64,000 nucleotides of DNA. Source: Candidatus Aminicenantes bacterium. GTDB taxonomy: Bacteria; Acidobacteriota; Aminicenantia; Aminicenantales; Aminicenantaceae. Positions within the stretch are counted from its first letter, which is position 1, and each line of letters opens with the position of its first letter. The stretch spans positions 21,287 to 85,286 of the forward strand of contig JAFGMO010000012.1 in the NCBI GenBank assembly GCA_016927475.1, written 5' to 3'. The notes beneath the pieces are model-generated. The model saw only the letters and a list, made by a program, of their open reading frames with translations, had not been told where the DNA came from and did no database searches. The translations under genes and the position numbers were made by a program. Positions 16,879-47,531 of the stretch are shown piece by piece.

Positions 16879-17199
16879 ATGAAGCTTTTAACACGAGCGG
16901 AAGAAATGATCCTTCTGTCCATTCTTAGGCTCAAAGACAACGCCTACTGTGTGCCCATTTTTGACGAGATCCAGCGGATCACACAAAAAAAATGGACCAT
17001 GGGAGGGATTTACATTCCGCTTTACAGGCTTGAAAAGAATGGGTATGTGGGATCCCATCTTGGTCAACCCACTGCAGAGCGGGGGGGGAAAAGTAAAAGA
17101 TTTTACTGGCTGACCCCTAAGGGTTTGAAATCCCTCGAGGCGATCAAAAAGATCGAAAAAGCTATGTGGGAAGGACTTACCCAAGTCGGCACTGATTGA
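16879..17199 (+). CDS. PadR family transcriptional regulator
   Basis: Winged-helix PadR signature (LSILRLKDNAYCVPI...GGIYIPLYRLEKNGYV...). Confidence 0.9.
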   Translation: MKLLTRAEEMILLSILRLKDNAYCVPIFDEIQRITQKKWTMGGIYIPLYRLEKNGYVGSHLGQPTAERGGKSKRFYWLTPKGLKSLEAIKKIEKAMWEGLTQVGTD

Positions 17200-20747: not shown

Positions 20748-21065
20748 ATGAAAGAATTGACCTTATCCCAACTGACCATCCTTCTGGCCATTTTGCGTTT
20801 GAAGGACAATGCCTACGGTGTGACTATCCGGCGGCAGATCCATGAGGTAACGGGAAAAGCCTTTCCTTACGGAACCTTGTACAGCTTTCTGGAGCTTCTC
20901 CATAAAAAAGGTTATGTCGAGAAATTTATCGGGGGGCCGACAAAAAAAAGGGGAGGACGGCGGAAAATTCTTTACAAACCTACCAAAAAAGGTTTGGAAG
21001 CGCTGCAGGCGGCCCAAAAACTTCAGAAAGCCCTGTGGCGGGATATTCCGGAAAAGGTTGTGTGA
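20748..21065 (+). CDS. PadR family transcriptional regulator
   Basis: Paralog of the 16879 gene. ATG 20748 has RBS AGAGGA. Its stop TGA overlaps the ATG of the downstream permease (TGATG). Confidence 0.9.
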   Translation: MKELTLSQLTILLAILRLKDNAYGVTIRRQIHEVTGKAFPYGTLYSFLELLHKKGYVEKFIGGPTKKRGGRRKILYKPTKKGLEALQAAQKLQKALWRDIPEKVV

Positions 21066-23689
21066 TGCGTCCTCCGAAATATGCTGAAAAAATATGTAAT
21101 CGTTTGTCCAGACGCGGGGAAGAATTTTCCCTGGTCGGAGATCTGCAGGAGGAGTTTTGCGATTTGTGCTCTCAGAAGGGCGTCCTTTCCGCAAAAGTGT
21201 GGTACTGGAAGCAGGTTTTTTTATCCCTTCCCGGGTTTGTTTTTAATTCAATATTTTGGAGTTTCATCATGTTTAAAAACTACCTAAAGATTGTCTTGCG
21301 CAATCTCAAAAAAAACAAAATTTATACCGTCATCAACCTGGCCGGATTAGCTGTCGGTATGACCGCTTTTATCCTGATTTTTTTCCATATCCGCTATGAG
21401 CTCAGCTATGACGGCTTTCATGAAAAAGGGGAACGCGTCTACCGGATTATTCGGCAGTATTCACGAAATGTCATAAAAAACACACCGGAAGAGCTTTATA
21501 TCGGGGGAACTCCGGCTCCTCTGGCTCCTTACCTTGTTCAAACATATCCTGAGGTCTTGGCCGGAACACGGGTTGGAGAGGTGAACGGCATTCTTCGTCT
21601 GGAAGATTCAAAATTCAGCCAGAACGGGATTTTTGCCGACTCCAACTTTTTTGATATATTCAGCTTCAAGCTCCTGCAAGGCGACGCTGAAAGGGCTCTC
21701 CAAACCCCCTTTTCCATCATTTTGACCCGGGAACTGGCAAAAAAATGTTTCGGCCGGGAAGATCCCTTGGGTAAAATGATTCATTTTTATAAACAAAAAA
21801 ATGAAAGCCGTTCAGGCCAAAAGAACGAGGATTATGATGTGCAGGTCACGGGAATTCTTGAAGATGTGCCTTCAAACTCCCACCTCCGGTTCGATTACAT
21901 CCTTTCCTTTGCCACCATCACAGCGACACCGGGAAACGCGCAGCTTCTTGAGACGTGGCAAAGGAGCGATTATTACAATTATATCGAGCTCGACCCTCAA
22001 ACCGGGCCCGATGTTTTTAATGAGAAAATCGCCGCTTTGGCCGATCAGCGCAGAGGACAGAAGATCGAAACATATGTCCTTCAATCCCTGAGGGATATTC
22101 ATTTCAAACTCGGTATCTTAGATGAAATGCCTGGGAATATGGTCGGAGACATCAAACAAGTCACTTTTTTTTCTCTTATCGCTTTCGTTATTTTACTTGT
22201 GGCCTGTATCAACTACATGAATCTGGCCACGGCCAGGTTCACCCGGCGCCTCAAGGAAATCGGCGTCAGGAAGGTGATCGGGGCTCACAAATCCCAGCTC
22301 GTGCGCCAGTTTTTGACGGAATCGACCCTGCTCTCCGTTTTTGCGGTTTTTCTAGCTCTTGGAATGGTCGGGCTTCTTCTGCCCGTCTTTTCACGCTTTG
22401 TCGGCCGGGAGATTTCCTTGTCTCTTTTCAACGATCCTCTGATTTTAAGTGTTCTTTTTGGTGTGGTCGTTTTTACGGGACTTATCTCCGGAAGCTATCC
22501 CGCCCTTTTTCTATCTTCCATTCGACCCATATCCATTTTCAGAGGAGGATCCAACCTGCGCCTCAGCGGGGGACGAATGCGAAATATGATGGTTTGTCTC
22601 CAGTTTGCCGTGACCATCCTCCTTATCACCTGCACGGTCGTCATTTCCAGTCAGATACGTCATGTTTTGCATAAAGATGTGGGGTATGACCGTGAGCATG
22701 TGGTCGTTATGCCGCTTCGGGACGAAGAGGCCAGGAACCAAGGATCGATCATTCTGAAAGAACTGCGACGACTTCCGAATGTGCAATATGCAACAAGTTC
22801 GGAATATATCCCCTTGGCCGTCAACAATATTCCGGGCTTTTGGTATGAGGATGAAAGCGGTGATCGGCAGAACATCAACGCGCTTGAGAGCGGCATCAAT
22901 TATGACTTTTTTAAGGTTTTCAAACTCAAACTTTTGGCCGGACGGACGTTTTCTCCCGAATACCAGGATGATGAGAAAGGAACCGTCATTCTCAATGAGA
23001 CCGCAGCCCGAAAAACCGGATGGAAAGAACCCGTCGGAAAAATGGTCCACTGTATGGGTTATCGGCGGATCATAGGCGTTGTCAAAGATTTTCATCATGC
23101 TTCCCTTCATGAGGGTATTCAGCCCATGGTTCTCCACCTGCGGCCCCAGGGATTCGCTTATGTTTGTGTCCGAATCAATCCGGACAACATTCCTCGAACC
23201 ATTTCCCTGCTGAAAAAAAACGTAGAAAAATTCAGCCCGCATTTTGCGTTTGAATATTATTTTCAAGATGATTATTTCAATATGAAATATAGTGCGGACC
23301 AGCGCTTCCGCATCCTTTTCGGTTCTTTTTCTCTTCTGGCTGTTTTCATCGCCTGTATCGGTCTCTTCGGTTTGTCCTCGTTTGTGATGGAACAAAGAAC
23401 AAAAGAAATCGGAATCCGCAAAGTTTTGGGAGCATCTCTTCCCGGACTTATAAGGCTTTTATCCTGGAAATATATCATATTGGTGGTAGCGGCCAATGCC
23501 GTGGCCTGGCCGCTGGCTTATATTATCATGAGCCGCTGGCTGCAAAATTTCGCCTTCAGAATAGATCTTGAAGCCTGGATGTTTCTTTTGGCTTCATTAA
23601 TAACCCTGCTTATCGTAATGTTGACGGTGAGTATCCAATCGTTCAGGGCGGCCCGGACCGATCCCGTTCGTTCCTTACGCTTCGAATGA
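21065..23689 (+). CDS. two-domain FtsX/MacB-like ABC transporter permease with prefix domain
   Basis: Same architecture as 17196; MFKNYLKIVLRNLKKNK motif. Confidence 0.85.
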   Translation: MRPPKYAEKICNRLSRRGEEFSLVGDLQEEFCDLCSQKGVLSAKVWYWKQVFLSLPGFVFNSIFWSFIMFKNYLKIVLRNLKKNKIYTVINLAGLAVGMTAFILIFFHIRYELSYDGFHEKGERVYRIIRQYSRNVIKNTPEELYIGGTPAPLAPYLVQTYPEVLAGTRVGEVNGILRLEDSKFSQNGIFADSNFFDIFSFKLLQGDAERALQTPFSIILTRELAKKCFGREDPLGKMIHFYKQKNESRSGQKNEDYDVQVTGILEDVPSNSHLRFDYILSFATITATPGNAQLLETWQRSDYYNYIELDPQTGPDVFNEKIAALADQRRGQKIETYVLQSLRDIHFKLGILDEMPGNMVGDIKQVTFFSLIAFVILLVACINYMNLATARFTRRLKEIGVRKVIGAHKSQLVRQFLTESTLLSVFAVFLALGMVGLLLPVFSRFVGREISLSLFNDPLILSVLFGVVVFTGLISGSYPALFLSSIRPISIFRGGSNLRLSGGRMRNMMVCLQFAVTILLITCTVVISSQIRHVLHKDVGYDREHVVVMPLRDEEARNQGSIILKELRRLPNVQYATSSEYIPLAVNNIPGFWYEDESGDRQNINALESGINYDFFKVFKLKLLAGRTFSPEYQDDEKGTVILNETAARKTGWKEPVGKMVHCMGYRRIIGVVKDFHHASLHEGIQPMVLHLRPQGFAYVCVRINPDNIPRTISLLKKNVEKFSPHFAFEYYFQDDYFNMKYSADQRFRILFGSFSLLAVFIACIGLFGLSSFVMEQRTKEIGIRKVLGASLPGLIRLLSWKYIILVVAANAVAWPLAYIIMSRWLQNFAFRIDLEAWMFLLASLITLLIVMLTVSIQSFRAARTDPVRSLRFE

Positions 23690-23974: not shown

Positions 23975-26557
23975 TCACTCATACCGGAGCGAGTCAACAG
24001 GATTAGATGTGGCTTCCCTTAGGAATTGAAATATAACTGCAGAAATGGCGACGGCGAAAGCTAAAAATGATGAAAAAACAAAAATCTCCAGCCGCATTCC
24101 AATTTTATAAGCAAAATTCCTCAGCCAACCGGACATCACAAAATATGCAAGGGGCCAAGCGATAACATTGGCTATAAGAACCCACAACATAAACTCTTTC
24201 CCCAAAATCAAAATCATATTTCCAGGCGAAGCCCCAAGAACCTTCCGGATACAGATTTCTTTTTTCCTCTGCTCAATGGCAAAAGAAGTCAATCCTATGA
24301 GTCCTAAACAGGCAATAAAAACAGCGAGGCCGGCAAAAACATTGATGAGTTTTCCCATGCGCATTTCCGGCTTATAGTGTCTTTCATACTGTTCTTCCAT
24401 AAAACGGAAGGCGAACGGAATATGAGGAAAGATATTTTTCCATATTTTATTTATATCTGTGAGAGTCATGGGAATGCTATCCTGATGAATTTTTATCAGC
24501 ACATGATTCCAATAATCTTCAGAGCCGATGCCCATAGCCAAAGGGCCGATACCCGAATGGAGCGAATGAAAATGAAAATCCTTCATCACTCCGATGACCC
24601 GGCCTTCCCGTCCGAAAAATGAAAACTTTGCTCCGACAGGAGACTCGGCTTCCATCATTCCGGCCAATGTTTCATTGATCAGAAATGCCTGCGTGGCATC
24701 GGTAGAATATTTTTTTGAAAACGGCCTTCCCTCTGCCAATTCGATATTTAAGGTGTCAAGAAAGTCATAATCCACCAGGTTTCCGGTAACATGAACAATC
24801 TCTTCCGGGTTCTTTCCCTCCCAATTCACGCTAGATGAACTGGTTTCGAAACTGGTCGGATCGGAGTAAGCAGCCGTAACATTCAAAATCCGGGGGTGTT
24901 TCAAGAGTTCGGTTCTCAGAATATCGTATGATTTTTTCATTTCTTTGCTTAGAGAAATCCCTATGAGATTTTCTCTTTCCCAGCCTATTTTTCTGTTGCG
25001 GACATAATCGAGTTGGCTGTAAACAACAATGGCTCCAATAATCAGAATGACCGATATGGAAAACTGAAGAATAACAAGAATCCGTCTGAATCCTGATTTT
25101 TTCTTCCCTTTTTGTAAAACATTCTTAAAAACATGAACGGGACGAAAAGACGAAAGAAATAGAGCTGGATAACTGCCGGCAACACATGCCGCAAATAAAT
25201 TGATTCCAACCAATCCAATAATGGCCTGCCAGTTGAAAAGAGAACGAATAGTTATCTGCTTTCCTGTAAATTTATTGAATTCGGGCAGAATGAGACAAAT
25301 GATTACCAAGGCCAGACCGAGCGCCAAGAAAGTCACAAACATAGACTCTCCGAGAAATTGAACGATCATATGTCTGCGCGTTGCCCCGAGAGTTTTCCGC
25401 ATCCCGATTTCCTTGGCCCTGTTGAACGATATGGCAGTCGTCAGGTTCATAAAATTGAAACATGCAATCAGCAGAATGAACACTGCAACAATGGAAAAGA
25501 TATAAACATAATCGATGCCTCTTAATCCTGGTGACAGCCGGTAATGCGATCGGAGATGAATATCAGAAATGGGTTCCAACAGAATTTCAGTTTTCGCGCC
25601 AGGCGAATATTGCTGGATGATTTTCTTTATTTTCTGATTGACCTCAAAAAATGAGGCTTTCTCTCCGAGTAAGACGTATGTTCGATAGCTGTTCATCCCC
25701 CAGCTATTGGGTTCATACCAATTCATGTGATTCAAATGGGACCACGGCAAAACGAAATCAAACTGGCGAATATGTGTATTATAAGGAATGTCTTGGAAAA
25801 CTCCCCTGACAGTATATTCGAACCGGCTATCAACCTGGATTATTTTTCCGATAGGATCTTCGTTTCCAAAAAAACTTTCAGCCCGTCTCTCACTGATGAG
25901 AGCAGAGTTCGGCGTATTCAGGGATGCTGCCCCTTCCCCTTTGATAAAGGGAAATGTGAAAAGATCAAAAAAAGAGGGCTCTACCACGATCATATTGGTC
26001 TCATTGAACGATTTATTTCCAGAGCGGAGAGGTACACTTCCCCAATAGCTGAGCCTTGTTGTCTCTACGATCTCAGGAAAATCATTTTTCAGTACCTGTC
26101 CCAGCGGAGGAGGTGTGGCTACAATTTTCCGTATTCCCCTTGATGACGGCAAATTCACAACCACTCTATACAAACGATCACGATTCTCATGAAAACGGTC
26201 ATAGCTATGCTCATCCAAAATCCAGAGCGTTATAAGAAGACAGCAGATCAATCCGACAGCTAATCCTGTGATGTTGATAAAAGAATAAGTTTTGTGCCTT
26301 CTCATGTTTCTCCAGGTGATCAAGGCATAGTTCTTAAACATCACCAGCTTGAATCGAATGGCATCCGCAACAAAAGGAGGGACGGATTTAAGTATATTGA
26401 GTGCTAACCAAAAATTCGCGAAAGGTCTTCCCCGGTTAGCGGCGATCTGCGCATATTCCTCTTCGAAATCACCGATGTTTGTATCATCGGCATATCCGGG
26501 TAAAACCCGGCGAAGCATCCAAACCAGGAATTTGGCAGGTTTATTTTTACGACTCAT
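23975..26557 (-). CDS. two-domain FtsX/MacB-like ABC transporter permease with prefix domain
   Basis: MFKNYALITWRNMRRHKTYS motif and duplicated FtsX domains. ATG 26557 overlaps the PadR 3' end by 11 nt. Confidence 0.85.
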   Translation of the reverse strand: MSRKNKPAKFLVWMLRRVLPGYADDTNIGDFEEEYAQIAANRGRPFANFWLALNILKSVPPFVADAIRFKLVMFKNYALITWRNMRRHKTYSFINITGLAVGLICCLLITLWILDEHSYDRFHENRDRLYRVVVNLPSSRGIRKIVATPPPLGQVLKNDFPEIVETTRLSYWGSVPLRSGNKSFNETNMIVVEPSFFDLFTFPFIKGEGAASLNTPNSALISERRAESFFGNEDPIGKIIQVDSRFEYTVRGVFQDIPYNTHIRQFDFVLPWSHLNHMNWYEPNSWGMNSYRTYVLLGEKASFFEVNQKIKKIIQQYSPGAKTEILLEPISDIHLRSHYRLSPGLRGIDYVYIFSIVAVFILLIACFNFMNLTTAISFNRAKEIGMRKTLGATRRHMIVQFLGESMFVTFLALGLALVIICLILPEFNKFTGKQITIRSLFNWQAIIGLVGINLFAACVAGSYPALFLSSFRPVHVFKNVLQKGKKKSGFRRILVILQFSISVILIIGAIVVYSQLDYVRNRKIGWERENLIGISLSKEMKKSYDILRTELLKHPRILNVTAAYSDPTSFETSSSSVNWEGKNPEEIVHVTGNLVDYDFLDTLNIELAEGRPFSKKYSTDATQAFLINETLAGMMEAESPVGAKFSFFGREGRVIGVMKDFHFHSLHSGIGPLAMGIGSEDYWNHVLIKIHQDSIPMTLTDINKIWKNIFPHIPFAFRFMEEQYERHYKPEMRMGKLINVFAGLAVFIACLGLIGLTSFAIEQRKKEICIRKVLGASPGNMILILGKEFMLWVLIANVIAWPLAYFVMSGWLRNFAYKIGMRLEIFVFSSFLAFAVAISAVIFQFLREATSNPVDSLRYE

Positions 26558-26888
26558 TTGAAGCCTTCTTTTCTGAGGAAAATTCGGGAACTCCTGTCCA
26601 CATAGAATCATGAAGCTTTCTGACTTCGTCCAAGGCTTTTAATCCGGGAGGCGTCATTTTGTATATTCGCCTGCTTTTTCCTCCCCGCACGGGAATGGGA
26701 TCAACCAAATAAGATTTGACCAATCCTTTCTTTTCCAGCCGATGCAGGGGCACATAAATGGCACCGAATGACCATGTCTTGCCGGTAAGCTTGGAGACAT
26801 GTTTTCTGATCGAGACACAATAGGCATCTTCTTGCAGCTCCCAGACAGCATGCAGCAAAAGCTCTTCAGGCCGCGATAGAAATTTCAT
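26547..26888 (-). CDS. PadR family transcriptional regulator
   Basis: PadR signature (LHAVWELQEDAYCVSI...GAIYVPLHRLEKKGLV). Confidence 0.9.
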   Translation of the reverse strand: MKFLSRPEELLLHAVWELQEDAYCVSIRKHVSKLTGKTWSFGAIYVPLHRLEKKGLVKSYLVDPIPVRGGKSRRIYKMTPPGLKALDEVRKLHDSMWTGVPEFSSEKKASNES

Positions 26889-29144: not shown

Positions 29145-31394
29145 ATGAAAAAGTATAAAATCGCCTTTATCGGAAATTATATTCCACGTCAATGCGGTAT
29201 CGCAACATTTACCAGAGACCTCACTGAGTCTTTAATCAAAATCAATAGAGAAAAGAATATAAAAGCAGAGGCCTTTGTGGTAGCGATGAATGATCAGAAT
29301 CAGACATATGCCTATCCGGAAATAGTCAAGTTTACTGTCAGACAGGAATATCAGAGAGACTATTTAGAAGCTGCAAAATTTATTAATTATAGTAATGCTG
29401 AAATCTGCATTTTACAGCACGAATTTGGCATTTTTGGGGGTGAAAACGGGATATATATTCTTCCTTTGATTCACGAATTGCAAATTCCTCTTATTGTTAC
29501 ATTTCATACGGTATTAAAAAATCCATCTGAAAAAGAGATGATGATTGTTAGAGAAATCGGGAAAAAAGCAGAGAAAATTGTTGTTATGAGCAAATTGGCT
29601 GTAGATTTTTTAATCAATATTTATAATTTACAGAAGCAGAAAATAAAGCTTATCGAACATGGAGTTCCAGATTTTGATTTTATTCAAAGGAAAACTTATA
29701 AAAAGAAACTCAATCTTGAAAACAAGAAATCACTGCTGACATTTGGACTATTGAGTCGAGACAAGGGGCTTGAAACTGTTATCCAGGCTCTGCCTCGCGT
29801 AGTGAAGAAACATCCTGAAATCGTTTATGTCATACTGGGGAAAACTCACCCAAATGTAGTAAGGTCGTCCGGGGAAGAATACAGAAATTATCTTAAACTT
29901 CTTGTAGAAAGGAATAATTTAAGAAAGCATGTCTATTTTTATGATAAATACGTATCCAACGAGGAGTTGTTTGGCTATCTTTCAGCCATTGATATATATA
30001 TCACACCATATCTCAATGAGGCGCAAATAACGAGCGGTACATTATCCTATGCCATAGGAGCGGGAGCTGCTGTTGTTTCAACCCCATACTGGCATGCCAA
30101 GGAATTATTGTCGGATGGAAGGGGAATGTTGTTTGATTTTAAGGATTCTGATGCACTTGCCGATTTACTGATAAATTTGTTTAATAACCCAGAAAAGCTG
30201 AGCAGAATAAGGAAAAAAGCTTATCAATATGGAAGGAAAACTGTCTGGCCTGAGATTGGGGCTCGCTATCTTCAGCTTGTTGCCGACGTCTTGAAAAAAG
30301 GTCCTGAAGTAAGAATTAAAGAGGAACCTGTAGTTAATCCTTTGATTCTTCCAGAATTTTGTTTAGATCATGTGCAAAGATTAACTGATGATACGGGAAT
30401 TCTCCAACATGCAAAATATATAATCCCTAACTTTAAAGAAGGCTATAGTCTGGATGACAATGCTCGCGCTCTTTTAATGTTTCTTATGGTCTTCAGGCAA
30501 AGAAAAAATAAAGAAGCACTGAAGTTTATTACTACCTGCTTGAGTTTCATCAATTTAATGCAGAATGATGATGGGACCTTTAAAAATTATTTGAGCTTTA
30601 ATAGGAATTTCATTGATCAAGTCGGTTCAGAAGATTCATTTGGTAGAACTGTGTGGGCACTTGGATATCTGGTTAAGTATCCACCAAATGACCTCTTTTT
30701 TGAAATTGCTGAAGAGATTTTAATAAAATCTTTCTCTAACTTGATGCATTTAAAATCTATTCGTGGTATGACAAACTCAATCATAGGGCTCTGCCATTTT
30801 CTCAAAATTTTCCCCGATAATAAGCAGATAAAAATAATCCTTAAAGAGATGACTTACAAAATAGTGAAAAGCTATAAAAATTATAAGACAGATGATTGGC
30901 GTTGGTTCGAACCAATTTTGACTTATGATAATGGCATTCTTCCCCTCTCGCTTTTGCATGCTTCTGAAGAGATTGAAGATGAGAACATTTTAAAGATTGC
31001 CTACGAATCAATAGAATTTTTGGAAAAAGCAACTTTGGTGAAAGGACATCTGTCTTTGGTGGGAAGTGATAACTGGTTTAAAAAAGGAGGAGATCGTTCG
31101 CAGTTTGCTCAGCAGCCATTAGATACTACGGCCATGGTTTTGATGTTTTATCAGGCTTATCTAGTCAGTAGAAATAAAACTTTTTTAAAAAAAATGCTCA
31201 AATCTTATATGTGGTTTCTGGGAGAAAATGATATAAATAAGCCTTTGTATGATTTCAAAACTTGCGGCTGTTCTGATGGAATAGAAAGCTACGGCACAAA
31301 CAGAAATCAAGGAGCAGAAAGCATTATCATGTATATGATTGCCCACATGGCCGTTCTTTTGGCTTATGAACAAGAAGTGGATCAGATCAAATGA
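29145..31394 (+). CDS. GT4-family glycosyltransferase fused to a C-terminal (alpha/alpha)6-barrel-like domain
   Basis: N-terminal ~390 aa are GT-B/GT4 (KIAFIGNYIPRQCGIATFT...). The C-terminal ~350 aa have alpha-toroid-like blocks (YSLDDNARALLMFL, NDDGTF, FGRTVWALGYL). Low GC (~35%). Confidence 0.65.
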   Translation: MKKYKIAFIGNYIPRQCGIATFTRDLTESLIKINREKNIKAEAFVVAMNDQNQTYAYPEIVKFTVRQEYQRDYLEAAKFINYSNAEICILQHEFGIFGGENGIYILPLIHELQIPLIVTFHTVLKNPSEKEMMIVREIGKKAEKIVVMSKLAVDFLINIYNLQKQKIKLIEHGVPDFDFIQRKTYKKKLNLENKKSLLTFGLLSRDKGLETVIQALPRVVKKHPEIVYVILGKTHPNVVRSSGEEYRNYLKLLVERNNLRKHVYFYDKYVSNEELFGYLSAIDIYITPYLNEAQITSGTLSYAIGAGAAVVSTPYWHAKELLSDGRGMLFDFKDSDALADLLINLFNNPEKLSRIRKKAYQYGRKTVWPEIGARYLQLVADVLKKGPEVRIKEEPVVNPLILPEFCLDHVQRLTDDTGILQHAKYIIPNFKEGYSLDDNARALLMFLMVFRQRKNKEALKFITTCLSFINLMQNDDGTFKNYLSFNRNFIDQVGSEDSFGRTVWALGYLVKYPPNDLFFEIAEEILIKSFSNLMHLKSIRGMTNSIIGLCHFLKIFPDNKQIKIILKEMTYKIVKSYKNYKTDDWRWFEPILTYDNGILPLSLLHASEEIEDENILKIAYESIEFLEKATLVKGHLSLVGSDNWFKKGGDRSQFAQQPLDTTAMVLMFYQAYLVSRNKTFLKKMLKSYMWFLGENDINKPLYDFKTCGCSDGIESYGTNRNQGAESIIMYMIAHMAVLLAYEQEVDQIK

Positions 31395-31401
31395 AAATCC
31401 A

Positions 31402-32868
31402 TCAATGATTCGTCAATTTCTCAAAGAGCTCATCAAGGGGAATGCCGGCAAATCCTGAGGAATAATCAGACATACCATAGGCAATGACTAATTCATTGTT
31501 ATGAATGATGGAACCGCAGGAATACACCACATTGGGAACATAACCTTCACGTTCCTCTTCGTTGGGAACAAGAAGTGGTTCTGCCAGGCGGCCGATAACT
31601 TTTGTAGGGTCATCTTTGTCAAGAAGTAGAGCACCTAGACTGTAGCTTCTCATCGGACCGACTCCATGGGTAATGAGAAGCCATCCTTTTTCGGTTTCAA
31701 GAGGGGATCCTGAATTACCGATTTTAATGAGTTCCCATGTTTGAAGGGGTTCCTGGATTTTCTTTGCACTTCTCCAGTAATTTATATTTTCTGAATACAT
31801 GATATAGTTGTTAATGCCATCCGATCGTGCAGTCATAACGTATTTTCCATTTATCTTTCGCGGGAAGAGAGACATCCCTTTATTCTGAGCATATTCTCCA
31901 TTCATCGGCATCACTTCAAAATGATAGAAATCATATGTTTTCATCAGTTTTGGCAGAATGGTATAACCATCATAGGCCGTATAGGTCGCGTAATAAGTGA
32001 CCTTTCCATTATCATCAGTAAATTTTACAAATCTGGCGTCCTCAATACCGTTCACTTCTGTGTATGAGACAGGAAAAAGAACTCTTTCTGAAATTGCAGT
32101 ATCCAGTGAAAATTTAACCTCATAATGAGACTTGGCCAGCCACATAATCGATTCTATGACCTTTGTTTTACTGGGAGTGACTCTAACCTGTTTTAAAGTT
32201 TCCTCTATACTTTGTTTCAATTCGCCGTAAAGAAATGTTTTTCCTAGTTTATCCATCACTATATTCACGACATCTTTTTCAATATGCATTTCAGAAAGCT
32301 TTTTCAGAAACGTTATTTTCTTGTATACATGACGCTTGATGATTTCTGGTACATCTACTAATCTTCCCTCAGTCTGAAATTTCAGGCTGTTATCTTTATC
32401 AACGATTCCCTGGCGGAAAACAATAGAAGAAATATGATGCTCGCCTGTAGCGCGGAAACTGACGATGATTCTTTTCTGGCCTTCTTCCAAATTGCTTTGA
32501 TCAGGTGCTTCAACAATAGATGGATTAAAAAACGCAGTTGATTCAATGGAGTATTCTGTTGTGAAATAAGATCCAATCAGTAATTTTTTTTTCAAACTAA
32601 GTGGCTTATTATCATTATTTATATTACCCAATATTTCTTGTAGAGAATTAAAACTATTCTCAAATATTTTTGAAATGTTTCGATGTCTTTTGGAAAAATT
32701 GCTCAATATTTGGTTGAGTATATGACTTACTTCCTCTTCAGAACGTTTTAAAATGCTTGTAATAATGACTCTTGCTCTATCCTCTTTTATTGGCATATAG
32801 AATTTCGCAATAACTCTTTTTGGGTTAGGGTAAAAACGAGTTTCTTTTCTATTCACGGTTATAGCCAT
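31402..32868 (-). CDS. GH130-family glycoside hydrolase/phosphorylase-like protein (beta-mannoside phosphorylase family)
   Basis: GIEDARFVKF (GH130 EDPR-like block), GALLLDKDDPTKV and VVYSCGSIIHNNELVIAYGMSDYSSGFA C-terminal blocks typical of GH130, plus an N-terminal ~190-aa extension. Low GC. Confidence 0.65.
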   Translation of the reverse strand: MAITVNRKETRFYPNPKRVIAKFYMPIKEDRARVIITSILKRSEEEVSHILNQILSNFSKRHRNISKIFENSFNSLQEILGNINNDNKPLSLKKKLLIGSYFTTEYSIESTAFFNPSIVEAPDQSNLEEGQKRIIVSFRATGEHHISSIVFRQGIVDKDNSLKFQTEGRLVDVPEIIKRHVYKKITFLKKLSEMHIEKDVVNIVMDKLGKTFLYGELKQSIEETLKQVRVTPSKTKVIESIMWLAKSHYEVKFSLDTAISERVLFPVSYTEVNGIEDARFVKFTDDNGKVTYYATYTAYDGYTILPKLMKTYDFYHFEVMPMNGEYAQNKGMSLFPRKINGKYVMTARSDGINNYIMYSENINYWRSAKKIQEPLQTWELIKIGNSGSPLETEKGWLLITHGVGPMRSYSLGALLLDKDDPTKVIGRLAEPLLVPNEEEREGYVPNVVYSCGSIIHNNELVIAYGMSDYSSGFAGIPLDELFEKLTNH

Positions 32869-33097
32869 TTTGTGCTTTCCTTCTTCTTCTTCAAAGCCTC
32901 AATCTAGTGAAAAGACTCTTAAATTAAAATTGTTTTTAATTAAGAGATTATTAAAGAAAAAACAAAGTTTTGTCAATACTCAAAGAAAGGCATGATTTGG
33001 GGTGGGGGATCACGGCCATCAAGATAGATTTTGCTGGGATGTATTTATTGTTTTTTTCCCGGCGAAGGCTTTTCAAGCGAGGTGCGCAGGACTGTAA

Positions 33098-34267
33098 TCA
33101 CCTGTTCTTTTTATCGAAGTATAAGATTTGACCTTTCTCTACACACTTGGCCGCATACAAATACATGGCGGCTGACCATGTCTGCCAGTCTTGCCCTTGG
33201 GGGGTGCCGTCTTTGGCGCGTATCCATTCATTGAAACCGAAGGAAAGCTTGTTTCCTCGAGCAGGCCTGACCAGCTCTGTAAGCGCCACTAATTTTTTTT
33301 CAGCCAGCTTGGGCATCCCTGCAGCGAGAACCGCGGCCACATAAAAACCGCAAATAAATGGCCAAACACCCCCGTTGTGATATTCACCGGGTTTATTGTA
33401 TGTTTCATAGCGGGGTCTCCAATCGGGATCCTCCGGTCTAATATAAGGAAATAAGTTCGGTGGCAAATCTACAGCTAGCTCTCTATGTTCCCTTAGATTT
33501 TTACATTCGGATTCGATCCAGGATATCAGCTGTTTCGATCGAGTATGACTAGCAATGCCGGTAAGAATGGCTAGGGAATTTCCCAGAAGGTCGAATCGTT
33601 CATTCCTGTAGATTTTGTAAGACCAGAGGGAATAATATGGCTTATGGGGAACAACCAATCCCTCGTGAACATGCCTTGACTGTTTCTCTCCCAGAATTAT
33701 GAAGTGCCGGATCATGTCACGGAGCTGTTCGGCCTGATCATTGCGCCCGAAAAGACAAAGATATGCGAAGACAATGGTATTAACATATAGCCCATAACCG
33801 AGAACCCATTGCTCGTCACGCCAGTCTGAGGTAGGAAGTTGAGCCACCATGACGCGGTCACTGGGGCTCTGGTACTCCATCCAAGTGAGCGCTTTATTTG
33901 CGGCCTCCTCTAAAAAATCCTTGTTGCCGGTTACCCTTCGGAAGATGGCAAGGGACATGAGAAATAGGGGAGTCGTATCACTGGCCCCCCGGTCTTCTGG
34001 ATCGTGCACCAATGAAGGGATGTGTCCATGAAAGGTTTGGTTCTGAGCTAGTGTTTCCAGTACTTTCTTTAGGCAATTTATAAGCTGTTCGTTCTCCGAA
34101 GCGAGTATCCCCAAAGCTGATACCATCAAATCCCTTGTATAAGGTTCAGGATACCCCCAGCCTGCTGTTCTGGGCAGTCCCTGATAGGGGCCTCGGGAAT
34201 TATGGATGAGAATCTCCAGAGCTGCCTTCTTGGCTTCCTCAACAGGATTGTAAAAAGGCTTTTTCAT
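33098..34267 (-). CDS. GH100/GDE_C-like (alpha/alpha)6-barrel glycoside hydrolase (neutral-invertase/amylo-alpha-1,6-glucosidase superfamily)
   Basis: PYTRDLMVSALGIL (compare VFIRDFVPSALAFL of alkaline/neutral invertases), GASDTTPLF and YHNGGVWPF motifs. Start is 1 nt after the upstream GT4 stop. Confidence 0.6.
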   Translation of the reverse strand: MKKPFYNPVEEAKKAALEILIHNSRGPYQGLPRTAGWGYPEPYTRDLMVSALGILASENEQLINCLKKVLETLAQNQTFHGHIPSLVHDPEDRGASDTTPLFLMSLAIFRRVTGNKDFLEEAANKALTWMEYQSPSDRVMVAQLPTSDWRDEQWVLGYGLYVNTIVFAYLCLFGRNDQAEQLRDMIRHFIILGEKQSRHVHEGLVVPHKPYYSLWSYKIYRNERFDLLGNSLAILTGIASHTRSKQLISWIESECKNLREHRELAVDLPPNLFPYIRPEDPDWRPRYETYNKPGEYHNGGVWPFICGFYVAAVLAAGMPKLAEKKLVALTELVRPARGNKLSFGFNEWIRAKDGTPQGQDWQTWSAAMYLYAAKCVEKGQILYFDKKNR

Positions 34268-34268
34268 T

Positions 34269-35414
34269 TCAGGAAATACTCAACCTTCGGGACATGATCT
34301 CGATAAATTTGCGGGCAACTCTGCGGTAATCAAAGAGTTCTACGACGCGTTTCCTTCCCGCCATACCCATTGTTTTACGGAGATCGGAATCAGTCATCAA
34401 TTTAAACAAATAATCAGCGATGTCATAGATGCTGGCACGGTAGTCGGCAGTGTGCGGCCTTGGAAAGACGATGCGGTGCCCATTCTCAAAACCGGACTCT
34501 TCTCCCAGAATCGCTTCTCTTAGCCGAACTTCCTGGGCTACGCGGGCAAGGAAAGCCGTTTCTTTATGAACCAAAGTATCCAGCATGGCCATCGCTTTGA
34601 TACCGATGACCGGTTTTCCACAAGCCCCGGCCTCAACCTGAGGCATACCGAATCCTTCCAATCGAGAGGGAGCCGCATATATATCGCAGGCACCGATCAG
34701 ATAAGGCATGAAATTCCTGGAAATTACATTGGTCGTATACACCACGTTCTTTTCTATACCCAGATCAGTGGCCAATTTCATATCTGCCAGGTTCTGAGCG
34801 ACCGTCCGAGGTTGAGGCCATACTTTACAGACGTACTTCCAATCAGGAATCTTGGTGTCAATCAAGGCGAGCGCTTGCATCACCTCCTGGGAACCTTTAG
34901 ATGCTGCATCACCACCGACAGTCAAGATCATGATCTGATCTTGAGACACTCCCAAGGCCTCGCGTACGGTTACGATCTTTTTGTCGTTCATGTCGGGGGG
35001 ATTGAAGGCATCAGTGTCACACCCAACAGGAAGGACTTCTATAATATCCTGTTTGACGCCGTCCCTGATGTAAGTGTCTTTAACCCAATTAGATGTGACT
35101 AAAATCAAGGGAAGATTGTTCAAGACTTCGATATAATTTGCAATATAACCGTCGGCTACCATCCAAGGGACAGGCAGTACGCCATATCTTTGCGGATGGA
35201 GAATCAAGTGGGGGGTGTGTCCCCAATAACCGACGCCTACCACAACATCTGGTTCGAACCAGCGGTAATACCACTCTTTTTCTTGGGCGGATTCGAAATG
35301 GACAGCATGCGCATCAATACCTATCTCCTTAAGGCCTCTGAAGAGGAGATCGCCCTGAGTAGCGAGGCCTCCAGGAGAAGGGGGATAATCATAGAGGACC
35401 AATATTTTCATCAT
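34269..35414 (-). CDS. GT4-family glycosyltransferase
   Basis: GT-B fold with C-terminal EGFGMPQVEAGACGKPVI motif. ATG 35414 (MMKILVLYDY) is preceded by AAGGAG. The longer track start lacks an RBS. Confidence 0.8.
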   Translation of the reverse strand: MMKILVLYDYPPSPGGLATQGDLLFRGLKEIGIDAHAVHFESAQEKEWYYRWFEPDVVVGVGYWGHTPHLILHPQRYGVLPVPWMVADGYIANYIEVLNNLPLILVTSNWVKDTYIRDGVKQDIIEVLPVGCDTDAFNPPDMNDKKIVTVREALGVSQDQIMILTVGGDAASKGSQEVMQALALIDTKIPDWKYVCKVWPQPRTVAQNLADMKLATDLGIEKNVVYTTNVISRNFMPYLIGACDIYAAPSRLEGFGMPQVEAGACGKPVIGIKAMAMLDTLVHKETAFLARVAQEVRLREAILGEESGFENGHRIVFPRPHTADYRASIYDIADYLFKLMTDSDLRKTMGMAGRKRVVELFDYRRVARKFIEIMSRRLSIS

Positions 35415-36063
35415 CTTTCTCCTTTTTGAGACACCATCCATTATAACTTTTTGGTGAATTGAAACACCAAAAGGCTTCCACATTGGGTGAGGTTCGAGCT
35501 TCCCAGCTTGCCTGAGAAAATCCGTATATCTTGGTTATAATAGAATTCTTTCTCTTCCAAACAGGCAGAGGCAGGGACAGGGTATGATGGGCGTTTTTAT
35601 CAGCGTGGGTGTAATAGGCTCCTTGGCCATCCTCATAGGCAAAAATCCACATTTCCTTTGTTTGGATCTTTTTACTGGTCCAGAGTGCTAATAATGCTTT
35701 GCCGGTTTCTTCATGTCTCCGGTGTCGGGTGTATTCGCCCCAAGGACTGTGGGTAATTAAAAGATCAAACCTGCTTCCTTCGATTAAGTTAATGATTGTT
35801 TTGTGAATCTCGGCCTCTTCCAGTGGCTTTTGATCAGGACCGTCCTCCAGATCCGCCATTTTTCCTTTTGCATGCAGAAATCTTAGTGCTTTGAAAAACT
35901 TGTTGGATCTGTCGCGATCGCTCTGGCGGCACAAAGTATAGATTGAACATTGCCATTCGGGATGCATAATTATTGTTCCTCCTGCCCAAAGTGTCTCATC
36001 ATCAGGGTGGGCAACAATGATCCCGACATTTCGGCATTTGTTATGTGTTTTTTCTTGCCCCAT
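35389..36063 (-). CDS. PIG-L/LmbE-family N-acetylglucosaminyl deacetylase
   Basis: AHPDDE zinc-binding motif (IIVAHPDDETLWAGG) and conserved His/Asp downstream. The 3' end overlaps the GT4 start by about 26 nt. Confidence 0.8.
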   Translation of the reverse strand: MGQEKTHNKCRNVGIIVAHPDDETLWAGGTIIMHPEWQCSIYTLCRQSDRDRSNKFFKALRFLHAKGKMADLEDGPDQKPLEEAEIHKTIINLIEGSRFDLLITHSPWGEYTRHRRHEETGKALLALWTSKKIQTKEMWIFAYEDGQGAYYTHADKNAHHTLSLPLPVWKRKNSIITKIYGFSQASWEARTSPNVEAFWCFNSPKSYNGWCLKKEKDDENIGPL

Positions 36064-36212
36064 GGTTCCTAGGAATAAAAAATTTTTTTTTATTTTTATA
36101 ATTATAATGTAAAGCTCGATGTAATAATACTGGAAAGCGGCCTTAGTCAGCGGATGAATTTTTTTTTAGATGCAAAGTATTCATATTTGAAATCGGTTTA
36201 TAAATATATAAA

Positions 36213-38633
36213 TCATTCTGATATTGTAACAGACTCCAAAAGTGCGGATGTCATCCAGGGAGAATAATCAAATAGATTATGATAGGAAAAACGTAATGTG
36301 AGAATATTCTCTCTTTTTTTTACAAAATCACCCATACAGATGAAATCAATCACATTGGTTCCGTATTTTAATGATTTTTGATATACATGAGTTCCATTAC
36401 AAGCGATTTTTACTTTCTGGATGTAATCTCCATGCCACCTAGGATCGGTAAAGCGGAATTGAGAATAGAGACGAAGCTGAACATGCATTCTTTTGGAGAC
36501 GGATTTGTTGATTCTTATATAAACTTCTCGCATACAGATTCTATGAGTTTTATTCTCCACTTTAACTATGGGACCAAAACCTGATAAAAATTCGATTTTA
36601 GGTCTTTGATTAGAGAGTCTTTCCCTGGGCATCTGATAGGATATTTCTTTTTCTGTATGGGGCATTTCAATGCCCTGATAGTCCAGATAGTATTTTATTG
36701 TGAATAGCTGAGTATTAGGCAGAGGCAGCTGAAAATGAATCAACTCCTTTTGAGAAGAGAATCCTCTCTCTAATGAAATATTTTTTTGGATTTTTATGTG
36801 GATCAGAAAACCTGGATTATTCGATAGTTTTCGATTCCGGAAAGTAATGTACAATTTTCTGTTGGAAGTTTCTATTTGATGGATAACAAGGTCTGGAATA
36901 GTATCTGGAATCCTATGTAGAAGTTCTAATGGAAAAATATGGCCTCGAAGATCAAACACCAAAAGCCCGAAGTTACCAATATCTATTTTTTTTCTATGAA
37001 CATGAAGCCGGTCAAGAAGCTGCAGAAAAAACTCAGAGCGGTCGAAATATTGGATTAAATTTTCTTTTATATTATTTACGCTTTCCTTGTATTTCAATGC
37101 GTACGATCCAGGCTCTTTAAAAAATAAAAAGTTGTTGTTTTCCCCACGGTTCAAGTACTCCAGTCGGTAAGGAATATATTTTACATAAGGTTGAGACCAA
37201 CAGATCAGCTTCTCACCCGAGAGGGCGGTAATAAGAAAGGACTGCCAGAATCCTCCTGTCCAGTACTTCTTGCCGGTTTTTTCCATAATTGTTATGAGTT
37301 GTTTTAAGTTGGCGTCTGCCTCTTTAACCAGGAGGTGGCTTTTAAAAAGCCCGGAAATGTTGCTGGTGAAAAAAATAAGGAGAAATAAACCTGCGATAAG
37401 AAAGTTTTTAATTTTTTTTCTTATCTGGATCATACCATATACTAAGAAGACAGGGAGGGAAACGTAAAGGGGATACAGATACCGGATCAAGAGATCGTTT
37501 GATTCGAATTTTGACAGCATGTAAATGCAAATAATGACAATAGCTAGAATGAGAAATATATTTTCAGGCAGGAATTTTTTTCTTTTTACTGAGTTAAATA
37601 TTAGAGTTGCCACACCAAGAATCAAAAGCCCGGCAAGTATATATACGAATTTGTTTTTTTCCCAAGTTAGTAGGGAAAAAATATTATTCAGGATGGAGGC
37701 CATTTTTTCTGTTGGATTATTGAGAAGGAGAGATTCTGGAAGCAGATACTGAATAGAAACCCCTTTAGAGCTTAATATGTGTAAAATCATGGGGAAACAT
37801 CCCACAAGTCCATAAATGCCCAGCTTGAAGTATTCTTTAATAGAAAACCGGAGCCGCATGACCAGAAATATCATACAGCATGACGCAAAATAGATAGTTA
37901 AAGGATGGGTCCAGAATGACAAACCCAGACATAGTCCGATTATAGGGATGTATTCTTTTCTATTTTTTTTATATAAAAGATAGGAAAGGAAAAGTGATAG
38001 AGTTCCCAAAAAAAGAACTACAGGTGAATAGGTGAGATGAAAGCTTAAAGCAAGGAGATATCCGATAGGCAGACTATAGAACAGACATAATGCTAAAGAT
38101 ATGGATTCTGATGAAAATATTTCCCGGTAAAAAAAATATTGAGTGATCACGAAGGCCGAAAAAAAGAAGAAGATAACGACCAAAGGACCCAAAATGGAAT
38201 AGCCGAATATTTTAAATACGATTGCATAAAGATGGCTGGGAAAGGTTCCTTCATCCAAGCTGTCATATAAATAGATGGGAGGCCATTTTCCTTCCGAGAT
38301 ATGCTTTCCGACTAATAGAGGAACGGAGTCATCGGAGTCTATAAGGCCAAAGCTATATGAATAAAATGGAATTCGAATGATGAGGGCCAGCAGGATGAGT
38401 CCGGTCAGAAACCAAAAACTCCTGGACTTCCAGAATGGAAAGTGTGGTCTGTATTTCTTGGATATTATTATACGAGCAAGGGTGATACCTATGAGTGGAA
38501 TCAATGCCGGAAATGGGGAGGCTTTGAGTTGATGCAATATTGTGAAGTTATTTTTGAACCATAAAATGAGAAAAATCAAATAAAGAATAAGTTGTAGATA
38601 TTTTAGAATAGATTTAGAGGTCTGTTTTGCCAT
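36213..38633 (-). CDS. GT-C-fold membrane glycosyltransferase (ArnT/PMT-like) with large C-terminal extracytoplasmic domain
   Basis: About 12 N-terminal TM helices with an acidic first-loop motif (GLIDSDDSVPLL), in the position of the GT-C catalytic DE/DxD. A ~380-aa soluble C-terminal domain follows. Very low GC (~33%). Confidence 0.5.
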   Translation of the reverse strand: MAKQTSKSILKYLQLILYLIFLILWFKNNFTILHQLKASPFPALIPLIGITLARIIISKKYRPHFPFWKSRSFWFLTGLILLALIIRIPFYSYSFGLIDSDDSVPLLVGKHISEGKWPPIYLYDSLDEGTFPSHLYAIVFKIFGYSILGPLVVIFFFFSAFVITQYFFYREIFSSESISLALCLFYSLPIGYLLALSFHLTYSPVVLFLGTLSLFLSYLLYKKNRKEYIPIIGLCLGLSFWTHPLTIYFASCCMIFLVMRLRFSIKEYFKLGIYGLVGCFPMILHILSSKGVSIQYLLPESLLLNNPTEKMASILNNIFSLLTWEKNKFVYILAGLLILGVATLIFNSVKRKKFLPENIFLILAIVIICIYMLSKFESNDLLIRYLYPLYVSLPVFLVYGMIQIRKKIKNFLIAGLFLLIFFTSNISGLFKSHLLVKEADANLKQLITIMEKTGKKYWTGGFWQSFLITALSGEKLICWSQPYVKYIPYRLEYLNRGENNNFLFFKEPGSYALKYKESVNNIKENLIQYFDRSEFFLQLLDRLHVHRKKIDIGNFGLLVFDLRGHIFPLELLHRIPDTIPDLVIHQIETSNRKLYITFRNRKLSNNPGFLIHIKIQKNISLERGFSSQKELIHFQLPLPNTQLFTIKYYLDYQGIEMPHTEKEISYQMPRERLSNQRPKIEFLSGFGPIVKVENKTHRICMREVYIRINKSVSKRMHVQLRLYSQFRFTDPRWHGDYIQKVKIACNGTHVYQKSLKYGTNVIDFICMGDFVKKRENILTLRFSYHNLFDYSPWMTSALLESVTISE

Positions 38634-46808: not shown

Positions 46809-47411
46809 ATGGATATCAATGTGAAGCATTCATGGAAGGCCATCGTAGGCCTATCCTCGCGGGGGTATACGTGCGGATACTGCAATCGCCCCCTCGCGTC
46901 CGAGAAGGGATGGCATTCGAACAATTCCGGTTTCATCTATGTCTGCCATCACTGTACGCGCCCCACCTTCTTCGACTTTCACGGTGAGCAGATCCCGGGT
47001 GTTATGCACGGGAATCCGGTCGGTGACATAACCGACAAGTCAGTTTCCGCCCTTTACGATGAAGCTCGCAGCACAACTCAGGCGAACGCCTACACTGCCA
47101 CGGTTCTCTGCTGCCGGAAGCTCTTGATGCACGTTGCCGTTTCAAAGGGTGCCAAGCTTGGAGAGAGCTTCGCGTTCTACGTCACCTACCTTGCAGAGAA
47201 AAACTTCGTTCCTCCCGACGCAATGGGGTGGATCGATCATATCCGCAAGAAGGGGAACGAAGCGAATCATGAGATCACCATCATGAAAAAGGACGATGCA
47301 GAAGAACTGCTGTCCTTTACGGAGATGCTGCTGAGGATTATCTACGAGTTCCCTGCGATGGTCGCGAAGAAGTACCAGCAAGGACAACAAGGGAAGGGGA
47401 AGACCACATAA
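46809..47411 (+). CDS. zinc-ribbon + DUF4145 domain protein (integron cassette R1)
   Basis: N-terminal CxxC...CxxC (CGYCNRP...CHHCTRP). The C-terminal region matches DUF4145 features (VLCCRKLLMHVA...HIRKKGNEANHE). Confidence 0.55.
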   Translation: MDINVKHSWKAIVGLSSRGYTCGYCNRPLASEKGWHSNNSGFIYVCHHCTRPTFFDFHGEQIPGVMHGNPVGDITDKSVSALYDEARSTTQANAYTATVLCCRKLLMHVAVSKGAKLGESFAFYVTYLAEKNFVPPDAMGWIDHIRKKGNEANHEITIMKKDDAEELLSFTEMLLRIIYEFPAMVAKKYQQGQQGKGKTT

Positions 47412-47427
47412 CAATCGAATCGAACGC

Positions 47428-47496
47428 GACTTAGTGTTAACCGCGCCGCTTCGCTCTGCGGCTAACACTAAGCGGTTCATTCGAGGCGTTATGTCC
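47428..47496 (+). other. candidate short or degenerate attC-like site (attC-R1)
   Basis: Imperfect palindrome CTTAGTGTTAACC-GCGCCGCTTCGCTCTGCG-GCTAACACTAAG (11/12 stem), whose centre GCCGCTTCGC..GCGGCT(T)AAC resembles the aadA attC centre. It is followed by GTTATGT (47489-95), the same R' as attC-L1 and L2. The full fold is unclear. Confidence 0.3.
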
Positions 47497-47531
47497 ATAA
47501 TTGTCATGAATGAATCGAATTATGAGGTTTG

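Follow-up and report, generated by a model that had tools for sequence, protein, structure and literature searches.

Introduction

In Thermoanaerobacter sp. X-514, the gene cluster Teth514_1785-1796 encodes two GH130 enzymes, a 1,2-beta-oligomannan phosphorylase and a beta-1,2-mannobiose phosphorylase, together with a GT4 glycosyltransferase (PMC4264767). Leishmania keeps a cytoplasmic beta-1,2-mannoside reserve, mannogen, which is built and degraded by GH130-like enzymes of family GT108 with mannose-1-phosphate (Man-1-P) and phosphate (PMC12814180, PMC10913872). Here we describe a group of genes with likeness to both systems in a 64-kb stretch of DNA, referred to as the window, from a metagenome-assembled genome (MAG) of Candidatus Aminicenantes. 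The genes encode a fusion of a GT4 glycosyltransferase to an (alpha/alpha)6 toroid (the fusion), a GH130 protein of unusual length (the long GH130), and a trio made up of a PIG-L/LmbE-family deacetylase (PIG-L), a further GT4 glycosyltransferase (GT4b) and a single-domain (alpha/alpha)6 glycosidase of GH-G type (GH-G). Our preferred reading, held with somewhat less than even confidence, is that these five genes form one cytoplasmic module that makes and turns over a soluble sugar compound. The module is uncharacterised but widespread, and it has two unusual architectures; on present evidence it is no new kind of biology.

The likeness to the X-514 cluster consists of cytoplasmic GH130 proteins of the beta-1,2 type beside a GT4. 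Over 276 structurally aligned residues, the propeller of the window GH130 shares 33% identity with Teth514_1788, and the catalytic and phosphate residues of the two agree. As in the X-514 cluster, two GH130 genes, here one long and one short, also occur together in many related loci. Unlike the X-514 cluster, the module has no ABC transporter, no GH5 and no Man-1-P guanylyltransferase. Its GH130 is about 200 residues longer due to an N-terminal helical domain and an insertion, its partner GT4 carries a fused (alpha/alpha)6 toroid, and an operon of PIG-L, GT4b and GH-G is attached. Leishmania mannogen serves as a conceptual model for the cycle of synthesis and turnover that is proposed for the module. 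The mannogen system is eukaryotic, GT108 is a separate family, and counterparts of the GT4-toroid fusion, the deacetylase and the GH-G partner are absent from it.

GT4 synthases together with single-domain (alpha/alpha)6 hydrolases, as in the module, also occur in the sucrose and sucroglucan metabolism of cyanobacteria, with the GT4 sucrose-phosphate synthase, TeGSS and a GH100 invertase. In the module, however, the likeness to GH100 lies in the C-terminal third of GH-G only, and there is no sucrose-phosphate phosphatase. The mycobacterial genes for methylmannose polysaccharide likewise combine a GT4 (ManT) with a toroid hydrolase (MmpH). In both systems such enzymes build up and mobilise cytoplasmic solutes or oligosaccharides. 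Compared to these, the module lacks methyltransferases, and the toroid of the fusion is further from the MmpH fold, being nearer to YPO2471, GH76 and AGE. Finally, a retaining GT4 that is genetically coupled to a metal-dependent PIG-L/LmbE deacetylase resembles the first steps of mycothiol, bacillithiol and glycosylphosphatidylinositol (GPI) biosynthesis. In contrast to those pathways, the module proteins score 5-10x under the equivalog cut-offs and are not orthologous, the deacetylase has diverged strongly from every solved LmbE enzyme and its gene comes first, and the next gene encodes a GH-G glycosidase instead of a cysteine ligase or a mannosyltransferase.

The proteins are deposited at NCBI as MBN1271115-MBN1271120 and are encoded on a 185-kb contig. 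The features are as follows (window positions; best family matches in brackets; GC, guanine plus cytosine content):

29145-31394, plus strand: GT4-toroid fusion, 749 amino acids (Glycos_transf_1, 74 bits)
29145-30314, plus strand: N-terminal GT4 domain of the fusion, residues 1 to about 390
30315-31391, plus strand: C-terminal (alpha/alpha)6 toroid of the fusion, residues about 391 to 749
31402-32868, minus strand: long GH130, 488 amino acids (Glyco_hydro_130, 123 bits, residues 258-483 only)
32869-33097, minus strand: AT-rich spacer of 229 bp between the trio operon and the long GH130 gene, 36% GC
33098-34267, minus strand: GH-G, third gene of the trio, single-domain (alpha/alpha)6 glycosidase of 389 amino acids, GH100/GDE_C/MGH1-like (Glyco_hydro_100, 48 bits)
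34269-35411, minus strand: GT4b, second gene of the trio, GT4 glycosyltransferase, 380 amino acids (Glycos_transf_1, 65 bits)
35389-36063, minus strand: PIG-L, first gene of the trio, PIG-L/LmbE-family deacetylase, 224 amino acids (Pfam PIG-L, 40 bits)
36213-38633, minus strand: GT-C-like polytopic membrane protein, 806 amino acids (PMT_2, 23.5-24.9 bits, below the cut-off)

Conservation and linkage of the genes across genomes

The genomic context of the genes was assessed by tblastn with the window proteins in two scans. The scan with the fusion yielded 80 loci from species-representative genomes and 2 others, giving 82, of which 46 are fully flanked by 8 kb or more on each side. The scan with GT4b yielded 80 loci on metagenome contigs. 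In 63 of the 82 genome loci, and in 39 of the 46 fully flanked ones, the long GH130 gene is found next to that of the fusion. In the window the two genes of this pair are convergent, with the fusion on the plus and the GH130 on the minus strand. The pair is present in many phyla and is also carried by cultured Bacteroidota, namely Dyadobacter, Pedobacter, Mucilaginibacter, Algoriphagus and Pontibacter. The trio is conserved as well. Of the 80 metagenome loci, 76 have PIG-L directly upstream of GT4b and 74 have the GH100-like gene directly downstream of it, and the misses are contig ends; in all 16 fully flanked GT4b loci the order PIG-L-GT4b-GH-G is complete. In 9-10 of these 16 loci a GT4-toroid fusion lies within 10 kb of the trio, either as an orthologue or as a paralogue of about 35% identity with the same motifs as the window fusion, and in 7 a long GH130 is also present within 10 kb. 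In two loci (L123 and L106) GH130, fusion, PIG-L, GT4b and GH-G all share a strand, their stops and starts overlap, and the five genes make up a single translationally coupled operon; the fusions of these operons are paralogues with the motifs retained.

The genes thus fall into three units: the fusion/GH130 pair, the PIG-L-GT4b-GH-G operon, and, apart from both, the GT-C gene. A preliminary description of this DNA had proposed that all six genes belong together. For five of them this is correct, as shown by the recurrent linkage over phyla and the single-strand operons.

Clustering of the neighbouring open reading frames (ORFs) revealed two further recurrent partners, both absent from the window. 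One is a GT4 of 336 amino acids, encoded directly downstream of the fusion in 48 of the 82 loci, which matches TeGSS, a cyanobacterial glucosylsucrose synthase, with an E-value of 2e-69 (PMC9909042). The other is a short GH130 that resembles beta-1,2-mannobiose phosphorylases. Among the clustered neighbour ORFs, no recurrent transporter, flippase, lipid-carrier, nucleotide-sugar or ligase gene was observed, nor was there a recurrent solute-binding protein or secreted glycosidase near the module.

Gene layout and assembly

All six adjacent carbohydrate-enzyme ORFs were confirmed at the coordinates first reported, and the earlier gene calls proved right: the Pfam families were recovered for the genes, the GT-C gene only via a PMT_2 match below the cut-off. 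The longest ORF of GT4b spans 34269-35483 on the minus strand. Its start was placed at M25 (position 35411), because orthologues begin MK[IV]LVLYDYPPSPGG and the NCBI protein MBN1271118.1 has 380 amino acids. With this start, the PIG-L stop and the GT4b start overlap by 23 nt, and the GT4b stop is separated from the start of the GH100-like gene by 1 nt, in agreement with the tightly joined core genes of the preliminary description.

The uneven base composition of the region could have resulted from a chimeric assembly. This was ruled out with a second assembly of the same organism (Logan SRR13394437), which is 100% identical over 10.8 kb and spans both GC junctions; the gene order is therefore real and not an assembly artefact. 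The best sigma-70-like match of the region lies inside the spacer between trio and GH130 (-35/-10 at 32976-32947, 11/12 matches), but it is weak evidence for a promoter, since promoter-like sites are no commoner than in shuffled sequences. Since the counts of both promoters and terminators in the region did not exceed those of shuffles, the operon boundaries rest on spacing alone. No RNA elements were found in an Rfam search of the window.

The long GH130 and the GT4-toroid fusion

The long GH130 has the five-bladed propeller of the beta-mannoside phosphorylase type and matches PF04041 well above the cut-off of 26 bits. In addition it carries a helical extension at the N-terminus (residues 1 to about 105) and a helical insertion (residues about 170-250), which make up the approximately 200 residues beyond the characterised members. 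The N-terminal region gave no match in Pfam, and its first 110 residues were found in 456 representative protein clusters. Among the 150 matches listed, they are located at or near the N-terminus of proteins of at most about 620 amino acids. This region therefore defines a 'long GH130' family.

Residues that matter for catalysis are retained. D277 is the catalytic aspartate and E276 the adjacent glutamate; E276/D277, K330, R348 and N353 align with E136/D137, K184, R202 and N211 of Uhgb_MS, and H401 and Y443 with the conserved histidine and tyrosine of Teth514_1788. In Uhgb_MS, E136 and K184 form the beta-1,2/1,3 specificity pair, and N211 is among the nucleotide- and phosphate-binding residues (PMC12814180). 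A phosphate-binding arginine is common to all GH130 phosphorylases (PMC12814180), and we equate it with R202 of Uhgb_MS. In an alignment of 18 homologues, the catalytic, phosphate and specificity residues of the long GH130 are invariant or nearly so. Against the equivalog models of characterised beta-1,2-mannobiose phosphorylases, the protein scores below the cut-offs (154 versus 450 bits and 153 versus 550 bits). On the basis of the kept residues, the long GH130 is very probably a mannoside phosphorylase or a Man-1-P-dependent synthase. Family, fold and residues thus bear out the earlier assignment to the beta-mannoside phosphorylase type.

In P0167, P0170 and about 25 other homologues of the long GH130, all of about 618 amino acids, a response-regulator receiver domain is present at the C-terminus. 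This domain suggests phosphorylation control of the GH130 in some lineages.

For the toroid of the fusion (residues 391-749), AlphaFold predicts an (alpha/alpha)6 toroid with a pLDDT (predicted local distance difference test) of 80 and a pTM (predicted template modelling score) of 0.86. Pfam gave no match in this region, which contains many invariant acidic residues. Both domains of the fusion are well conserved, with 57-65% identity to matches named for other phyla. At least 8000 homologues each were found for the fusion and the long GH130, the best matches named for other phyla being 57-70% identical, and in public databases the two proteins are named just 'glycosyltransferase family 4' and 'glycoside hydrolase family 130'. 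Both GT4s of the module score above the Pfam cut-off for Glycos_transf_1, the fusion as an atypical member due to its residue L300 (see below). The possibility that GT4b with GH-G and the fusion are duplicates of one unit was also considered. BLASTP gave an E-value of 0.05 between the toroids and of 9e-6 between the GT4s, the latter over 115 amino acids only; such weak matches provide no evidence of a recent common origin.

The PIG-L/GT4b/GH-G trio

The PIG-L domain was recognised by PF02585 with 39.9 bits (cut-off 28.2), and the metal motif AHPDDE together with H105...H114-x-R-H117-E-E is invariant. When a profile of PIG-L was compared to the PDB, none of the solved LmbE enzymes matched significantly, MshB being found at an E-value of about 0.9. 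GT4b has a canonical EX7E motif (E252-x7-E260) and is 74-80% identical to its counterparts in the 80 metagenome loci. The earlier pairing of a GT4 with PIG-L was thus well founded: the two genes are a conserved unit with translational coupling, which recurs in 76 of 80 loci. This coupling makes a step from N-acetylglucosamine (GlcNAc) to glucosamine (GlcN) plausible, and we regard it as a reasonable inference. In one Draconibacterium MAG chromosome (locus L013, 12547-12666), the GT4b orthologue is cut to 56 amino acids after an intact PIG-L, which looks like a decaying copy of the trio.

The third protein, named 'amylo-alpha-1,6-glucosidase' at NCBI, matches GH100 (48 bits), GDE_C (37 bits) and MGH1-like (27 bits) families in its C-terminal third (residues 224-377). 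The GH100 score exceeds the cut-off of PF12899 (23.6 bits), yet covers only profile positions 289-433 of 435. A profile search of the PDB returned cyanobacterial and plant alkaline/neutral invertases alone (E-value 1e-8). The invariant Glu347 (FNEW) aligns with the glutamate of the invertase FPEY motif, and the region of the acid aspartate falls outside all alignments. Members of GH100 belong to clan GH-G and act as inverting alpha-glucosidases (bioRxiv 10.64898/2026.07.01.735942). Judged by these matches, GH-G most likely hydrolyses an alpha-gluco-configured bond.

The GT-C-like membrane gene

The preliminary description also counted the GT-C-like membrane protein among the pathway members. 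Its match to PMT_2 (PF13231) amounts to 23.5 bits for the whole protein and 24.9 bits for the N-terminal half and does not reach the gathering cut-off of 26.1 bits; only 5 of 56 homologues have a precomputed PF13231 match. A hydropathy scan indicated about 11 hydrophobic segments in residues 1-430, followed by a soluble C-terminal domain of about 380 residues for which Pfam gave no match. A DSDD motif after the third hydrophobic segment fits the acidic motif of a first outer loop. At NCBI the protein is labelled 'GT39 family'. The deposited sequence starts at an internal methionine and has 681 amino acids; homologues align over 806 amino acids, and the Logan call is also 806 amino acids long. 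With the deposited start, the DSDD loop and the three membrane segments before it are probably lost.

Only 56 homologues were found. The few with a named source are from Candidatus Aminicenantes, and the nearest is 46% identical, while the other five genes have relatives at 79-90% identity. Among the 162 related loci searched by tblastn with the window proteins, none carries the GT-C gene. Its homologues occur instead, often as tandem paralogues, in envelope-glycan clusters that also encode GT2, DUF2304, DegT aminotransferases, epimerases and other PMT_2 proteins. For these reasons GT-C was dropped from the pathway. It is an unrelated envelope-glycosylation gene, a chance neighbour in this lineage, and lies outside the module; the basis for an extracytoplasmic or GPI-like reading is therefore gone. 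The SNF-family transporter gene that adjoins GT-C was likewise absent from all 162 related loci with the module.

Base composition and history of the locus

Two low-GC blocks around a core of higher GC had been reported for the region. This pattern is present, but the percentages given (35, 48 and 33%) are slightly off: the fusion/GH130 block (29145-32868) has 36.0%, the core trio (33098-36063) 47.3% and the GT-C block (36213-38633) 36.2% GC. As the GC content of single genes in the window ranges from 35% to 60% around an overall value of 46.2%, mosaicism belongs to the window as a whole. The low outliers are the fusion (35.4%), the GH130 (36.8%), GT-C (36.2%) and the neighbouring SNF transporter (39.5%).

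In two related Aminicenantes contigs, whose fusions are 78% and 88% identical to that of the window, the pair has 33-35% GC and the flanks mostly 42-50%. Neither contig carries the trio or GT-C after the GH130. The pair is also lower in GC than most flanking genes, by about 3 to 12 points, in unrelated or distantly related genomes (L001, L002, L168 and L169), which could reflect either a composition bias specific to the family or repeated transfer from AT-rich donors. The earlier view of a composition that resembles horizontal gene transfer is thereby reversed: the core (47%) has the GC of the window mean (46%), and the low-GC pair is common to relatives. The core trio is genome-typical in GC, and the pair is the part shared within the lineage. 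A foreign origin of the core as a 47% GC island was considered as well; its composition equals the window mean and speaks against this, yet the relatives do not have the trio at this site. The adjacency is therefore lineage-specific. Pair, trio and GT-C side by side are particular to this organism, and the trio may have come either by an intragenomic move or from outside.

In one of the related Aminicenantes contigs (L169, 13944-14312), a phage-integrase fragment of 122 amino acids lies directly after the long GH130, at the position of the trio in the window. It may mark a recombination hot spot.

A proposed cytoplasmic sugar cycle and alternative explanations

According to our preferred reading, the five genes serve a cytoplasmic cycle. 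In a hydropathy scan, four of the five conserved proteins lacked hydrophobic segments altogether; GH-G has two, which fall inside its toroid domain. The enzyme mix comprises two to three GT4 synthases on one side and reversible or degradative GH130s and two toroid domains on the other. Such a cycle is the most economical reading because predicted membrane segments are missing, GH130s use cytoplasmic phosphate, synthases are mixed with degradative enzymes, and export or carrier genes are absent. We infer all steps from family chemistry. GT4b, a retaining GT4, would transfer an alpha-linked GlcNAc or a related hexose onto a cytoplasmic acceptor, and PIG-L would take off the acetyl group to give an alpha-GlcN glycoside. 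The long GH130 would reversibly add and remove beta-1,2- (or beta-1,3-) mannose via alpha-mannose-1-phosphate and phosphate. The GT4 domain of the fusion would add an alpha-linked sugar, and its GH76/epimerase-like toroid would trim or remodel the chain. For turnover, the GH-G enzyme, of the inverting alpha-glucosidase type, would cut an alpha-gluco-configured bond of the alpha-GlcN glycoside. The cycle would probably yield a small GlcN- and mannose-containing glycoside or oligosaccharide that acts as an osmolyte or a carbon reserve. The receiver domains of some GH130s, the TeGSS-like GT4 and the short GH130 are hints of a regulated small-molecule cycle. Cycles with soluble products that offer analogies are those of sucrose and sucroglucan, glucosyl- and mannosylglycerate, methylmannose polysaccharide and Leishmania mannogen.

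Several observations weigh against one soluble cycle for all five genes. The trio is near the pair in only 3 of the 46 fusion-anchored loci. This makes the pair the widespread core, with the trio as an accessory that has a strong preference for a place beside it, and GlcN may be merely an accessory decoration. Sequence does not reveal the donors or the acceptor, and GT4b gives similarly low scores with glycogen-synthase-like, MshA and other GT4 models. By-eye alignment places an invariant leucine (L300) at the second glutamate of EX7E in the fusion, whose GT4 domain may not be a standard nucleoside diphosphate (NDP)-sugar transferase. The structure model of the long GH130 is of moderate confidence (pLDDT 66), the acceptor could instead be a lipid or a protein at the inner membrane face, and a literature search turned up no paper describing the module.

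With such an acceptor, the product would be a membrane-anchored or surface glycoconjugate, GPI-like or a glycolipid: at the inner leaflet GT4b would form a GlcNAc-lipid for deacetylation by PIG-L, mannose units would follow, and GT-C would complete the glycan outside the cell. The chemistry of a GT4 with PIG-L is indeed that of PIG-A and PIG-L, in the window the GT-C-like gene precedes the trio on the same strand at a distance of 149 bp, and a peripheral membrane association of the GT4s would be invisible in sequence. GT4b also matches N-acetylglucosaminyl-phosphatidylglycerol synthase, but the 43 bits are far under the cut-off of 480 bits. The Pfam matches of both GT4s (E-values up to 0.01) are to generic GT4-type families alone, with no PIG-A-specific family among them. 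A GPI-type pathway, as suggested in the preliminary description, is thus reduced to the PIG-L domain, and the GT-C partner is missing from all 162 loci, belongs to a small family with Aminicenantes as its named members and is found elsewhere in unrelated envelope-glycan clusters. Neither a polyprenyl-phosphate-sugar synthase nor a flippase is encoded in the window or recurs nearby, and the GH130 phosphorylases require cytoplasmic phosphate. We consider a surface glycoconjugate improbable. A similarly small chance is given to a catabolic or salvage pathway, in which GH130, PIG-L and the toroids would degrade imported beta-mannosides or GlcNAc oligosaccharides and the GT4s would re-use the sugars. 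The order of PIG-L and a glycosidase resembles the archaeal route of diacetylchitobiose deacetylase and glucosaminidase. Furthermore, the closest characterised GH130s, Teth514_1788/1789, are clustered with a GT4 and a Man-1-P guanylyltransferase and have been read as GDP-mannose salvage (PMC4264767). Unlike in Thermoanaerobacter, the surroundings of the module show no recurrent transporter, solute-binding protein or secreted glycosidase, the SNF-family transporter beside GT-C is not conserved with it, and the cluster is dominated by two to three biosynthetic GT4s.

The preliminary description had further considered a pathway to a low-molecular-weight thiol akin to mycothiol or bacillithiol, in which a GlcNAc conjugate would be converted to a GlcN conjugate and ligated to cysteine. 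The conserved and coupled pair of GT4 and PIG-L is what MshA/MshB and BshA/BshB would lead one to expect, and both GT4s show weak matches to MshA and BshA. These scores are all far under the equivalog cut-offs. For MshA (TIGR03449, cut-off 462.5 bits), GT4b reached 55.3 and the fusion 43.0 bits; for BshA (TIGR03999), GT4b reached 33.3 versus 273.7 bits; for BshB2 (TIGR04000), PIG-L reached 24.1 versus 195 bits; and the MshB model of NCBIfam did not match PIG-L. The third conserved gene encodes a glycosidase rather than a ligase, and neither the 64-kb window nor the set of recurrent neighbours contains an MshC- or BshC-like cysteine ligase. Membership in a thiol pathway was rejected on the basis of these scores and the PIG-L search of the PDB, and we regard this explanation as highly improbable. 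Judged from the profiles, the likeness to thiol and GPI-like pathways is a one-step chemical resemblance and not membership.

A more specific form of the soluble cycle can be formulated, which we offer as a speculative possibility on the unlikely side. The pair with the optional trio would make and mobilise a new, 'bacterial mannogen-like' carbohydrate of the cytoplasm, for instance a reserve or osmolyte that contains beta-1,2-mannoside, is primed on an alpha-glycoside and optionally bears free glucosamine. As part of the same speculation, its range would take in Bacteroidota, Aminicenantes, Ignavibacteria, Spirochaetota, Desulfobacterota and numerous uncultured phyla, and in some lineages two-component phosphorylation of the GH130 would control its turnover.

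Other features of the window

An ORF of 2158 amino acids (47529-54005, plus strand) matches the PADLOC model of the antiviral STAND protein Avs3a (E-value 1e-202, 674 bits), with Pfam NACHT/AAA_16 matches only below the threshold. Upstream of it (46809-47411, plus strand), a DUF4145 protein with a weak match to PD-T7-4 is encoded. The region 46809-54005 is probably an anti-phage defence locus. The window also contains four paralogous permeases of the MacB_PCD/FtsX type of about 790-880 amino acids (17196-19841, 21035-23689, 23975-26611 and 60001-62376), one of which is adjoined by a PadR-family regulator (26547-26888).

Implications

If the module does produce a new intracellular sugar, a further carbon-reserve or stress-protectant pathway would become known in many environmentally abundant and mostly uncultured lineages. 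The module would also give bacterial beta-1,2-mannoside phosphorylases a physiological role and would provide enzymes for making beta-mannosides and amino-sugar glycosides. Because cultured carriers of the core pair exist, the question is directly testable.

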